Source of the DNA: an uncultured Planctomycetaceae bacterium
Lineage (GTDB): Bacteria > Planctomycetota > Planctomycetia > Planctomycetales > Planctomycetaceae
Length of the DNA: 64,000 nt
Direction: 5' to 3'
Assembly (NCBI GenBank): GCA_963815195.1
Contig: CAWFGE010000008.1
Location: forward strand, 64,001 to 128,000
The position numbers were made by a program, and so were the translations under genes. Of this stretch, positions 47,102-53,629 are shown piece after piece. The notes under the pieces were generated by a model. It was given only the letters and a program-made list of their open reading frames with translations. It was not told the DNA's origin and searched no databases. Numbering within the stretch: position 1 is the stretch's first letter; every line of letters starts with the position of its first letter.

Positions 47102-48424
47102 ATGATGGCCGACCTCATCAAAACGCTCGAAGAGTTGGCGGAGCTTCCCCCAAACGCATTGGAGAAGTGCGACGTCGCCTTGCTCAATCTCTGGGCCGCC
47201 CACGGATTGCCGGGAACGGAAGATCTCAACATCGCCACGATTTTGAATACGCTCGACGAATGGGCGGAGAAGGTCCAATGGGAAATCTGGCGGCACATCT
47301 ATCGCCTTGACCCTCGGACCGTGGTACCGCCAACGGAATTCAGTTACGGGAATTCCTTGGGGCGTTTTTTCTGTTGGTACTTGCTGCAAGTGCTCCAAGA
47401 GGATTGCGGCGTCGCTTATCACCCCGACCGCAAATTCAATCCCGATTTCTGCCAACCCGAAGATGTGTTTATTCATGGGATGATTGTCGAAGGCGGTCGA
47501 GGCGGAACTTGTGCCTCCATGCCCGTGTTGTATGTCGCTGTCGGGCGGCGGATTGGGTTGCCGCTTTATCTTGTCGGAACGCGGGGCCACCTCTTCTTCC
47601 GTTGGGACGATCCCAAAGGCACAACAATCGACTGGGATCGACAAGGCTTGCACCTCTGGATTCCACCGGATCGGTTCAATGTGGAAGGTTCCGGCGAGGG
47701 CATCGCATATCGTGCCGATTCGCACTACATCCAATGGCCGGAGTTGTGGACGGAGGTGGACTTCAACCACGGTCGTTATCTGCGTTCCCAGAGCGCTGCC
47801 GAAGACGTGGCGGATTTTCTGATGCAACGCAGCGAATGCTTCTACGAACTGGGGAACTGCGAAGAGTGCCTGAAGGCCATCTATTACGCCAGCAAGTTCT
47901 CGCCGGACGATCCGCGGCTCAAAGGAACTCACGCCAAGCGGACAAAAGAGTTTCAGGAGAAAATCCGGCGAGCCGAGTCGATTCAGGAAATCGACGCTTG
48001 GAGCCGCGAACAACGAGCCAAAGCGAAACCCGCGATTCCAGGACACGATCTTCAATGCCGTTGCGAACGCTGCCGGAAGGTGCGGTTGATCGAACAATCG
48101 CGGCCCACGGATCACGGCGGTTCTTGCAATTGCTGGCACTGTCGGCAAATCCGCACGATTCAAGAAGCTGAACCCCAAGGCATCCCAAATCACCACCCAA
48201 CGTGCCAGTGCCTTCGCTGCCAAAACGCCCGGAAAAATGTCGATGCTCACACGGGCTTGCCTGGGCATCCGGCGTCGTGTTCCTGTTTCGATTGTCAACA
48301 ACAACGCCGAATGCCATCGCCGATCTACGCGAAACCGCCTCTACCAGCAACGCCTCGCCTTCCCGGCGTGCCCCATCAACCAATCGTCAATCGCCACCAC
48401 CCGCCTGGATTGCCGGGAACGTGA
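47102..48424 (+). CDS. Transglutaminase-like protein with TPR-like helix, four HxxxCxCxxC repeats and Pro-rich tail
   Basis: GTCASMPVLYVAVGRRIGLPLYLV...GHLFFRW...FNVE; Cys/His repeats at 48041-48298. Confidence 0.75.
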   Translation: MMADLIKTLEELAELPPNALEKCDVALLNLWAAHGLPGTEDLNIATILNTLDEWAEKVQWEIWRHIYRLDPRTVVPPTEFSYGNSLGRFFCWYLLQVLQEDCGVAYHPDRKFNPDFCQPEDVFIHGMIVEGGRGGTCASMPVLYVAVGRRIGLPLYLVGTRGHLFFRWDDPKGTTIDWDRQGLHLWIPPDRFNVEGSGEGIAYRADSHYIQWPELWTEVDFNHGRYLRSQSAAEDVADFLMQRSECFYELGNCEECLKAIYYASKFSPDDPRLKGTHAKRTKEFQEKIRRAESIQEIDAWSREQRAKAKPAIPGHDLQCRCERCRKVRLIEQSRPTDHGGSCNCWHCRQIRTIQEAEPQGIPNHHPTCQCLRCQNARKNVDAHTGLPGHPASCSCFDCQQQRRMPSPIYAKPPLPATPRLPGVPHQPIVNRHHPPGLPGT

Positions 48425-48584
48425 TCTTCAACCAAGGAGACTCAAAATGTATCAGCCGACACTTGGCAGATTCACCGCGCGTGACCCGATGCCTGAAAAC
48501 GGTGTACTCGTAGGGGGGATTCCACAAAGTTCTTATTGGTATGCGAATAATAATCCCGTAAACTTCGTTGATCCCAGTGGTCTT
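48380..48584 (+). repeat. Cassette repeat copy 1 (3' end of transglutaminase-like gene, RBS, Rhs-core stub)
   Basis: Homologous to 51699-51906. Confidence 0.9.
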
Positions 48585-49190
48585 CAGAGCAAGAACCCGT
48601 ATTCGGTAGCTTATCCCGAGGGGCCAGGTTTTGTATTTCCAACAACGACGGACGAACCCGAATTCCCGGCGGTACCAACTTTTCCAGAAGCAGGTAAAGA
48701 AGGAAAGGCGTTCAAGAACGCAAGGACTCTGCTGGGCATCAATTGTCTAGAGTATCTGAGTTGTCCATCAAGAAAAGATGCTCGCCAAAAGCCAATTCCA
48801 AACATCGGCCCGCCTCCAAAACCCATTCCAGTTGGCCCAACTGGTGGATACTCAAAGTTCTATGGAAAGCCATCGAAGGAGCCGATCGGTGGTGGGGGAG
48901 CTGATCCGTGCGCGGTCGTCGTCTTGCGTTGCAAGCGAGGGGCGGCCGTTTTTCACTTTACCCCCGGAGACGATCCGTTCGAGACATTAGGGTGGAGCAG
49001 CTTAATCGGAAGAACCATAGATTGGAAGGGATGCGAGGCGATTGTTTGCGGGGGAGATGATACAACTCAGTCTAACTGCCTCCACGACGATGTTTTGGCT
49101 GCGTTGAAGTCAGTCGGAATCAAGGTTCTAGGCGTTTCTCCTTTTTCCAGCTGTGGACTGAATCCCGATGGAACATGGTATCAAACCTAG
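48447..49190 (+). CDS. Mini-Rhs toxin 1: Rhs-core stub plus putative CNF1/CheD-like deamidase
   Basis: AAGGAGA RBS; MYQPTLGRFTARDP...YANNNPVNFVDPSG; GGADPCAVVVL...AAVFH...AIVCGG. Confidence 0.75.
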   Translation: MYQPTLGRFTARDPMPENGVLVGGIPQSSYWYANNNPVNFVDPSGLQSKNPYSVAYPEGPGFVFPTTTDEPEFPAVPTFPEAGKEGKAFKNARTLLGINCLEYLSCPSRKDARQKPIPNIGPPPKPIPVGPTGGYSKFYGKPSKEPIGGGGADPCAVVVLRCKRGAAVFHFTPGDDPFETLGWSSLIGRTIDWKGCEAIVCGGDDTTQSNCLHDDVLAALKSVGIKVLGVSPFSSCGLNPDGTWYQT

Positions 49191-51906: not shown

Positions 51907-52561
51907 GCAGCTGAACCAGTATTTGACAACTCATGTTCGCTCCAGGAGCAGGCGTGCATTATAGAAGCGTGGGAGTTGGCTGATAAGATTTTAACGCAAA
52001 ATGAACAATCAGTAAAAGCGAACTGCCCCGACAATAAGCCGATGTCATGTGATCTAAAGCAACTTGTGGCTTGCATTAGAAATGCACTAACGTCCGTCAA
52101 GATTGCTTGTGCTAACCGTGGAGAGGGCGGCTGCCACAAAGGTCAGAAAAATCTGGGCCATACGGACACTCCCTGTGGTCGGATTAAGGGACTTGCGTCC
52201 ATTGGGATTCTCTGTTCCGTCGCCACCAAGCCCACTTTTCCCATGGTTACCAAACATTCTATGCAGTCCCTGTAAACACTTCTTGCCTTATGCTAACGAT
52301 TGTTCCTCCTGTCCCGATGAAGCTCTCACAGGTGCAAAAACATACCTTTGCCGTGACCAAGCACCAGGCGGAAAAAGCATCGCTGGATCGTGCGGTAACC
52401 AGAAAGGCACAAAATGTCTTGCTGCATTATTGGTTCACGAAGCATCACACAATTGCGTAGGGGGGCATGGTACGACCGGTGGAGAAGGCAAATGTGATAA
52501 GTGTGGGAGGCCAGATTCATCCAGTATCGGTGAACGCTTTAAGAAGGCGGTAGGCTGTTAA
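51769..52561 (+). CDS. Mini-Rhs toxin 2: Rhs-core stub plus Cys-rich HExxH metallopeptidase-like domain; one frameshift in about 52180-52260
   Basis: MYMPELGRFTARDP...NNPLNMADPSG; LAALLVHEASH in the overlapping frame 52103..52561. Confidence 0.7.
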
Positions 52562-52597
52562 CACCATGTGAATTGGAGCCAAAGTTTGGGGTATGGC

Positions 52598-53629
52598 ATG
52601 AGTTTTAATACAATAATAACTGCTTTAGGTTTATTGCTCGAAGTTAGCACCTCATTACAACCGATGTCATTCGGTGACGAAAAACGGATTGCTAGCAAGC
52701 CGACGCTTACGGCCGCATTTCCAGGAGCCGAAGGACGGGACTTTAGCGTCAAGTGCGTCACATTCTCACCGAATGGAAAAATGCTCGCGATGGGTTCGGG
52801 CGACAACAAGCGAGGTGTCATCGACTTGTGGGACGTGAAGACAAGAGATCGGATTCTCCGTCTTAATGGGCACGCCGGATATATCTATTCCGTCGCTTTC
52901 TCAGCCAACGGGAAGATGTTAGCTTCATCAAGCTTCGATGGAACGGTTCGGCTTTGGCAGATCCCTAGTGGAAAAGAATTGCACGTTTTGAAGGGGCATC
53001 TGAAATTCGTCCCCTGGGTCGTTTTCTCACCTGACGGTAAGTTAGTTGTGTCAGGCGATGATGAAAATATTTACTACTGGAATGCGATAACAGGGAAAAA
53101 GAAGGCAAGCGTCAAAGCCCACAACGGAGGAACTGATGCCTTGGCATTCTCCCCGGATGGAAAAACCCTGGCATCCGGAGGATTTGATAAAAGCATTAAG
53201 CTCTGGGACGTTGGGACAACGAAATTGAAAAGCACATTATTCAAACATAAGGGGCCGTTGCAATGCGTGGCATTTTCTCCCGATGGAAAAACGATGGCCG
53301 CATCGCCGAGGAGCTATAATACGGTCACTTTATATGATATCCAAACAGGCCGCCTCAAAAATCTGGAAACCGATAAAGCAATTTGGGGAACCATCTCATT
53401 TTCTCCTGATGGGCGAACGCTCGCGGTCGGAGAGCAAAAAAGCGTCCTCTTTTTTGACGTGGCCTCGGGCAAGAGAATCTGCAATTTCAAAGCCCATGAT
53501 TACTCAATCTATCAAGTTGCCTTTTCTCCCGATGGAAAGTTTCTCGCAACAGCAAGCTCGGACAATAGTGTGAAGCTTTGGAATGTCGAGTTTCTTAAAG
53601 ACAGGTGCGCCAATTCGCCTTGGCCATGA
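52598..53629 (+). CDS. WD40-repeat protein with N-terminal hydrophobic leader, candidate immunity
   Basis: About 7 repeats of H...V..VAFSPDGK.LAS...D..VKLW; AT-richer than host. Confidence 0.85.
   Translation: MSFNTIITALGLLLEVSTSLQPMSFGDEKRIASKPTLTAAFPGAEGRDFSVKCVTFSPNGKMLAMGSGDNKRGVIDLWDVKTRDRILRLNGHAGYIYSVAFSANGKMLASSSFDGTVRLWQIPSGKELHVLKGHLKFVPWVVFSPDGKLVVSGDDENIYYWNAITGKKKASVKAHNGGTDALAFSPDGKTLASGGFDKSIKLWDVGTTKLKSTLFKHKGPLQCVAFSPDGKTMAASPRSYNTVTLYDIQTGRLKNLETDKAIWGTISFSPDGRTLAVGEQKSVLFFDVASGKRICNFKAHDYSIYQVAFSPDGKFLATASSDNSVKLWNVEFLKDRCANSPWP

Follow-up and report, generated by a model that had tools for sequence, protein, structure and literature searches.

A transglutaminase-fold enzyme linked to shell-less Rhs-core stubs: an apparently undescribed kind of probable polymorphic toxin system from Planctomycetota

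Genes of the locus

The window analysed here is a 64,000-nucleotide (nt) stretch of DNA from an uncultured Planctomycetaceae bacterium (contig CAWFGE010000008.1 of assembly GCA_963815195.1, positions 64,001-128,000). It holds a gene for a transglutaminase-fold enzyme and two cassettes, each encoding a short stub of the terminal Rhs core joined to a variable C-terminal tip, followed by a partner gene. The gene set represents a real and apparently undescribed kind of probable polymorphic toxin system within Planctomycetota. No description of the enzyme-stub pairing was found in the literature searched, and the supplements of PMC3482391 could list such operons.

The enzyme gene occupies 47102-48424 (+) and encodes the signal-less form of the protein. 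A preliminary description of the window had called it a 440-residue transglutaminase-like gene, and the open reading frame (ORF) indeed gives a weak match, over cut-off, to PF13369 (Transglut_core2, E 1.7e-5); conservation, an AlphaFold2 (AF2) model and fold matches point the same way. The strong ribosome-binding sites claimed for the cassettes are also there, with ATGs at 48447 and 51769 each 6 nt after AAGGAGA (the Shine-Dalgarno (SD) sequence of cassette 1, 48434-48440, +) and CAGGAGA, respectively. Stub 1 (48447-48584, +) and stub 2 (51769-51906) are both 46 residues long, end in DPSGL and are identical at 38 of 46 positions; the match to TIGR03696 positions 37-76 bears out their identification as terminal Rhs core, and the DP aspartates of stub 1 are D13 and D42. 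Unrelated tips and then different downstream genes follow the two stubs, as described. Tip 1 (48585-49190, +) is predicted from its model and fold matches to be a deamidase of the CheD/NTAN1/CNF1 superfamily with the motif GxPC...HF...CGG, and partner gene 1 (49168-49812, +) is a putative immunity gene whose DUF1559/pilin-like product has an N-terminal transmembrane (TM) helix (PF07596, weak, E 0.02). Stub 2 and its Cys-rich, HExxH (HEASH) metallopeptidase-like tip together span 51769-52561 (+) and are frameshifted in this assembly. Partner gene 2 (52568-53629, +), again a putative immunity gene, encodes a WD40 propeller (PF00400) with a signal-peptide-like N terminus.

Some details of the preliminary description need correction. 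The cassettes are not directly consecutive, as a broken IS1380-family transposase element (PF13701 in pieces, with inverted ends; 49892-51677, +), a passenger with many ~91% identical copies in the genome, separates cassette 1 from cassette 2. The abrupt switch to an AT-richer domain holds for tip 2 (GC content 0.49 vs 0.55 in the stub) and fails for tip 1 (0.52 vs 0.49). Likewise, the standalone proteins of about 250 residues with their own start exist in general, but the ORF of cassette 2 ends at 52275 after 168 residues, and the rest of its coding sequence lies in another frame, to 52561. Comparison with an intact 264-residue homologue in the sister genome G001 places the break within 52184-52242; no public contig spans it, and thus decay and assembly error are not distinguished. 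A contig that joins 48397 to 51717 has 22-23 differing letters on each side, may stem from the second locus of the genome, and was not used. No RHS_repeat match occurs on this contig stretch, in keeping with the reported lack of a YD-repeat body, and the stated absence of PAAR and VgrG also stands, VipB and sheath genes likewise being matched nowhere in the whole genome.

Linkage of enzyme and stub

The enzyme family numbers 1,251 clusters at 50% identity (E<=1e-30), with genomic context checked in part of them. Of 138 loci from genomes and 167 from metagenomes we took the best 80 each, grouped them at 80% identity, and applied a profile built from these loci to the DNA within 600 nt 3' of each enzyme gene. 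A stub lies in this range in 137 of 160 loci. Among loci with at least 400 nt downstream, and with L111 dropped (its enzyme gene is broken and the DNA 3' of it is still enzyme), the stub gene comes next in 129 of 133, or 91 of 95 groups. The tabulation of homologues thus yields a recurring Rhs-stub ORF with a conserved start and variable C termini, and the transglutaminase-like gene is the fixed partner that it was suggested to be. The four misses comprise L059 and L172, with the stub upstream, L167, with the stub 1.2 kb further on behind an inserted ORF, and L135, with none.

Forward and reverse searches of a phylum sample of 301 genomes give the same picture. All eight genomes with a match below E 1e-40 have a downstream stub at their best locus, compared with 0 of 22 weaker paralogues, two of which have a stub 2.4-2.5 kb upstream. 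The reverse search, with a pattern of SD, ATG and stub, returned 28 matches; 15 are true stubs, of which 12 lie directly behind an enzyme gene, one is cassette 2, and two belong to G588, where the enzyme gene is on a contig other than that of the Met-stubs. Among the matches listed that cover the signal-peptide part, nine of ten signal-peptide stubs stand beside an enzyme gene. The proportion of nonsynonymous differences between five stub copies (pN 0.05-0.17) is far below that of synonymous ones (pS 0.44-0.82), so the likeness of the stubs is not due to chance. No third fixed gene family recurs, the commonest being present in 7 of 114 groups; type II secretion-like genes were considered as a member and rejected, as they occur near L135 and L059 only.

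The distribution of the enzyme is patchy (6 of 41 near genomes) and nearly restricted to Planctomycetota. A further 200 genomes from the phylum to which G596 belongs gave no enzyme match at E<=1e-25, and the three of 80 genome loci labelled non-planctomycete (L066, L079 and L100) may be transfers or mis-binned contigs. Phage carriage was also considered and set aside, as nine matches in viral collections resemble one Pirellula-type lineage also present in cellular contigs.

Two further arrangements were seen. At L290 (G588:C177), two Met-stub cassettes without an adjoining enzyme gene each follow a similar upstream element of ~60 nt. L292, L293 and L294 encode very distant TM-anchored relatives of the enzyme, with a signal-peptide stub gene upstream rather than downstream.

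Enzyme and stub

The enzyme consists of a papain-like core (C137-H163-N193), helices resembling tetratricopeptide repeats (TPR; ~230-305), four HxxxCxCxxC fingers (at 315, 338, 364 and 389) and a Pro-rich tail. Its triad is near-invariant among the rows that cover each residue (C137 in 263 of 265, H163 in 267 of 268, N193 in 264 of 267), and Asn is the third triad residue of papain-type peptidases. The AF2 model (predicted local distance difference test score, pLDDT, 88) is closest in fold to menin (Z 13.8, root-mean-square deviation 4.5, 227 aligned residues), followed by bacterial transglutaminases (Z 8.8 and 8.7) and PNGase (Z 8.1). A Foldseek search against the PDB gave no match at E<=0.001, the best again being menin (E 9.4e-3). 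PF13369 is a family of unknown function according to PMC10318531. In three proteins (P0121, P0131 and P0207) the enzyme domain is tandemly duplicated, and by eye one copy of each lacks the catalytic Cys motif.

Seven of 264 proteins fuse enzyme, linker, stub and tip in one chain, with differing tips, and here the enzyme occupies the place of the Rhs shell. Of four fusion clusters looked up, three contain 2-4 members; the seven fusions resemble one subgroup and are therefore counted as one event. One record alone, P0189, has a TM-anchored enzyme in the same frame as Rhs repeats and the core's first half, and may record the insertion of an enzyme gene into an Rhs core.

Stub proteins begin at position 37 of the TIGR03696 core and carry no YD-repeat shell in the polypeptide. 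The stub corresponds in alignment to the final ~40 residues of the core in solved Rhs and Tc chains; compared with the 77-residue Tse5 plug (PMC10684867), it is without the first ~35. It varies between 38 and 98 residues, with variable inserts between the two DP motifs. The DP...DPxG aspartyl motif (D13 and D42) is present, and all 58 full stubs in the alignment retain D13; the invariance of D42 and G45 is partly built in by the selection of alignment rows. Five enzyme-adjacent loci (L028, L029, L166, L199 and L200) have half-stubs that retain only NxYxYxxxNPxxxxDPxG. Rhs self-cleavage requires both aspartates, according to PMC10684867. Half-stubs lack the first DP, so no Rhs autoprotease is possible in them, and DPxG would be kept for another reader.

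Two forms with a joint switch of export signals

The system occurs in two main forms. In form A, to which the window belongs, neither the enzyme nor the stub protein has an export signal; the stub has a Met start, which lies 2-35 nt beyond the enzyme stop codon in 45 of 49 loci, and an SD core lies 5-9 nt before the ATG in 44 of 49. In form B, the stub comes immediately after a Sec-type signal peptide that ends in AxA, and an added basic N terminus and TM helix anchor the enzyme in the membrane. The mature N terminus falls one residue before a conserved Tyr in both forms. Hydropathy and motif served to call signal peptides and TM helices, with hand corrections for L061, L138 and L084 and with 5'-truncated loci excluded. 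Localisation signals are found on neither protein in 44 groups, on both in 42 and on one alone in none. At least three changes of form are forced on a quick maximum-likelihood tree of 94 enzymes, in which the labels of L042, L080 and L087 were set by hand, and the nested switches L169 and L100/L182 have no TM helix in any frame. As the compartments of enzyme and stub protein switch together, the two partners most likely touch, three events being a small number.

Zinc fingers, which the preliminary description treated as a trait of the enzyme, are present here and do not define the family: the HxxxCxCxxC repeats occur in 32 of 44 form-A groups vs 0 of 42 form-B groups, a restriction that would be expected of a cytoplasmic protein. 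A third type of leader, an unrelated N-terminal peptide of ~40 residues standing in for the first Rhs half before a half-stub, was seen at L028 and L029 (G028) and at L301 (G588); it begins MVRTTEMPR in two loci.

Tips and partner genes

The 219 tips fall into 153 families, 120 of them singletons; this set includes 38 tips labelled as ordinary Rhs by pattern, at least three of them wrongly. Forms A and B have tip families in common. Other families are shared with ordinary Rhs genes (L072 with L081 and L261; L186 with L100) or with a fusion (L175 with P0197). L166 (4786-6138) encodes a 451-residue protein with a signal-peptide-like leader, a half-stub, PT-HINT and a tip, behind an enzyme that looks unanchored; this is classic pretoxin architecture inside the enzyme-stub system.

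The motif GxPC...HF...CGG of tip 1 was one that we took to be CheD-like before any fold comparison. The tip 1 model, of only moderate confidence, has a pLDDT of 56 overall and 50-80 in the domain, and its top eight fold matches are CheD (Z 8.5), NTAN1 (8.1), YfiH (6.1), YlmD, CNF1, CNFy (two entries) and BLF1, predicting a deamidase fold of CheD/CNF1 type. The Atlas lead for this tip is PF14736, found on 36% of members, and in two of six homologues Ser takes the place of the presumed catalytic Cys. None of 1351 candidates carried tip 1 on a longer protein (353-2000 residues), which is weak evidence.

Homologues of partner gene 1 stand behind the same tip family in L041 and L128, with PF07596 found at that place in L041 and L119. 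Tip-partner pairing recurs for two tip families, and the deamidase-like tip in L020 has a different partner. None of 60 partners matched a known Imm family; the genes next to tips are WD40, LRR, WG-repeat, DUF1559 or unassigned. Those with a hydrophobic start fit a role in envelope-side immunity and are regarded as putative immunity genes.

Proposed mechanism and alternatives

We propose a system of three parts: a fixed transglutaminase-fold cysteine enzyme that acts as the processing protease, a pro-toxin of stub and tip, and an envelope-facing immunity partner. As a whole this model has close to an even chance of being right, and its parts differ in strength. The tips are likely toxic. The enzyme probably binds the stub where both are made, taking over the role of the YD shell for this peptide. 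A more tentative assignment, somewhat short of an even chance, is that the enzyme releases the tip by thiol proteolysis, cutting at the DPxG(L) boundary or beside it. Cleavage in the exported form would take place in the periplasm, where the enzyme is anchored to the membrane. The signal-less form would cleave in the cytoplasm, and its tip would leave by a Sec-independent route or by lysis. Of the enzyme roles offered by the preliminary description, processing fits best.

A bolder and rather unlikely extension is that the last ~25-45 residues of the Rhs core serve as a portable address tag. A menin-like cysteine enzyme, separate or fused, would read this tag in place of the YD barrel of 1,000-plus residues, and the signal-less form would deliver Cys-rich toxins to the envelope of neighbours independently of Sec and of type VI secretion (the T6SS).

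Several observations weigh against the proposed model. The closest fold of the enzyme is menin, which in humans is probably an inactive scaffold (PMC10318531). Most stubs keep both aspartates, so self-cleavage may be sufficient and the role of the enzyme another one. The 86 groups with consistent localisation represent about three independent switches. In G084, which is 91% complete, the searches found a signal-peptide stub and nothing matching the enzyme. Pfam matches over cut-off occur in five of 98 stub proteins (SLT, AMOP twice and DUF6973 twice), with no nuclease toxin family over cut-off among the 98. Moreover, form-A tips and partners look extracytoplasmic though form A has no export signal: form-A tips are as Cys-rich as those of form B (6.0 vs 5.3 Cys per 100 residues), and form-A partners are equally envelope-facing (hydrophobic start in 26 of 35 vs 21 of 33, with a crude choice of ORF). 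Genes for T6SS or sheath components (VipB, sheath, PAAR and VgrG) were not matched in five carrier genomes.

The first alternative, which has a small but appreciable chance, keeps the enzyme active and changes its chemistry. By acyl transfer, the enzyme would form a thioester at the stub and ligate stub or toxin to an amine for display or export, the amine belonging to an envelope protein, peptidoglycan, a lipid or the enzyme itself. The transglutaminase fold, the membrane anchor of the exported form and the mature N terminus placed alike in both forms agree with this. However, the stub has no conserved Gln, which speaks against classical Gln cross-linking, the free N terminus is dispensable, being missing in fusions and half-stubs, and the third triad residue is the Asn of papain-type enzymes.

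It is also conceivable, if unlikely, that the menin-like enzyme is a scaffold that holds the stub in the Rhs-plug fold while its two aspartates self-cleave, the triad having another role or none. Menin is the best fold match, D13 is kept in every full stub, and the stub lacks the part of the Tse5 plug noted above. The near-invariant triad argues against a pure scaffold, as do the five half-stub loci, which keep the enzyme though self-cleavage is impossible there.

In a third and distinctly improbable alternative, the tips would not be toxins and would form, with their envelope-facing partners, polymorphic pairs of ligand and receptor that serve kin or surface recognition. Few tips match toxin families, tips are Cys-rich and some are AMOP, and partners include WD40, LRR, WG-repeat and pilin-like surface proteins. 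Against it stand the enzymatic tips (deamidase fold, HExxH and SLT), PT-HINT, and the families shared with ordinary Rhs genes.

The enzyme could also load or ligate stub and tip into an Rhs shell encoded elsewhere, as the preliminary description proposed; we consider this very unlikely. L081, L100, L154, L165, L172 and L183 lie 3' of ordinary rhs arrays, which fits an origin of the system from such loci, P0189 joins repeats to the enzyme, and the genome has two long Rhs genes, one of them split ahead of its core. Both are ordinary. In the split gene (L192, G000:C15:296153-303519) an ORF of 529 codons, which looks like a transposase by eye, is inserted between a 1750-residue Rhs ORF and its core, the remainder of which lies 1.6 kb on. 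Furthermore, G001 (94% complete, with two loci and four stubs) has two isolated RHS_repeat matches only, in frames of 69 and 84 residues, and G028 (99% complete, with four enzyme matches) has no RHS_repeat match, although assemblies can lose repeats; the lack of a YD array in both makes a shell in trans unlikely, and in fusions the enzyme itself sits at the shell position. A 6,700-codon open frame at G000:C7:109186-129285 (-) has several YD-like motifs and no RHS_repeat Pfam match.

Finally, that the cassettes are orphan rhs remnants left by loss of a shell gene, with the enzyme a chance neighbour, is already largely refuted and retains hardly any probability: in its displacement and its frameshift, cassette 2 resembles the silent fragments described in PMC2935791, where true orphans have cores of varying length and are mostly startless, but one fixed start with SD or signal peptide is seen across 91 groups, together with the co-switch of signals, the fusions and a pN far below pS.

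Cassette turnover and genomic setting

Under the proposed model of enzyme-read stubs, new tips would arrive by recombination in a repeat of ~180 bp made up of enzyme tail and stub, pushing the old cassette downstream. At the head of cassette 2 the last ~16 codons of the enzyme gene are copied, with the SD after them (51697-51768, +; aligned with 48378-48446), forming the putative recombination arm of a displaced cassette, and the 180-bp repeat is 75.8% identical between the two copies. In G001, the enzyme gene is immediately followed by a cassette-2 homologue (74% identical at the nucleotide level over 1.9 kb), and the partner behind its tip is 66% identical to partner gene 2. Cassette 1 is thus most simply the newer arrival, which displaced cassette 2 through the 180-bp repeat, and cassette order varies between sister genomes. 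The second locus of the genome has an enzyme 88% identical to that of the window, the same stub, a distantly related tip and a different partner gene behind it. Displacement of old cassettes downstream by recombination with new tips is the model put forward for Rhs in PMC2935791.

The leader or promoter region (46779-47101, +) is kept with the enzyme gene, in a block 85% identical to the second locus and to the sister genome. Upstream of it lies a repeated, non-coding, palindrome-rich element (46343-46748, no strand assigned), which is att-like and belongs to the context rather than the core of the system. Three further copies in the genome are 72-93% identical, one beginning directly after a tRNA-like 3' end, and the element may mark the att end in a family of tRNA-targeting islands. 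Rfam gave no match across 46000-54000, this element included, and promoter and terminator counts around the locus are at chance level. On the other side lies a serine recombinase module (53600-56235, -) that includes a small ORF and a DUF5131 fragment and has copies of ~90% identity at two other sites in the genome. A DUF2924 ORF (55959-56801) also has a GNAT domain, and the similarity of the recombinase module stops at 56235. Lying between att-like repeat and serine-recombinase module, the locus is probably island cargo. Further on (58981-62767), an extracytoplasmic function (ECF) sigma factor gene precedes a Ser/Thr kinase-WD40 gene, both recognised by translation, a common pairing in planctomycetes.

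Significance and closest known systems

If the proposed model holds, this would be a new class of polymorphic toxins in a phylum whose antagonism is little studied, and a branch of PF13369 would gain a concrete substrate and a simple assay. Use of the Rhs terminal core without a shell would make its role beyond self-cleavage testable with a 250-residue protein. The joint loss of export signals by both partners is an unusual natural experiment that points to an unexplained export route, and well over 100 tip families, most of them without annotation, become available from the loci together with candidate partners.

In how it would work, the system comes closest to S8-PTS, in which a separate peptidase processes a small toxin with a constant N-terminal domain and a variable tip, next to an immunity gene, as set out by Li, Tan and Zhang 2022 (PMC9424270) and Mwangi et al. 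2026 (PMC13556192). Both systems have three parts, with a separate enzyme, a constant-N/variable-tip toxin and an immunity gene that is putative here. S8-PTS relies on an S8 serine protease and BetaH in Gram-positive bacteria, in contrast to the papain/transglutaminase fold, Rhs-core stub and Planctomycetota hosts of the present system, which also has a signal-less form and fusions. The two are not homologous, and none of the defining parts of S8-PTS is present.

The stub shares with Rhs/YD-repeat toxins a homologous terminal core with DP...DPxG, tip displacement and a partly common tip pool (PMC2935791 and PMC10684867). The differences are that the YD shell and the initial half of the core are both absent, that the stub has a precise start or signal peptide to itself and one fixed enzyme as partner, that the inserts between the DP motifs vary, and that half-stubs occur. 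Orphan rhs modules lack the fixed start with SD seen here, and no rhs gene lies upstream in the window. Small secreted polymorphic toxins of the MafB type are short exported toxins with downstream cassette arrays; their N-terminal domain is non-homologous to the stub, and most downstream cassettes here, unlike theirs, keep their own start or signal peptide. MafB-type toxins are mentioned in PMC2935791.

Transglutaminase domains have been reported in RHS toxins by Zhang et al. 2012 (PMC3482391), which describes them as inactive, with the triad lost, and N-terminal to a full RHS array. The enzyme resembles these in placing a transglutaminase fold N-terminal to Rhs-type toxin parts and departs from them in its kept triad, the absence of a shell and a gene that is usually separate. 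With Transglut_core2 (PF13369) and menin it shares the weak Pfam match and a menin-like transglutaminase-plus-TPR fold; unlike the weaker paralogues, this subfamily is tied to Rhs stubs. The system is not a member of S8-PTS, of Rhs proper or of the orphan rhs modules.

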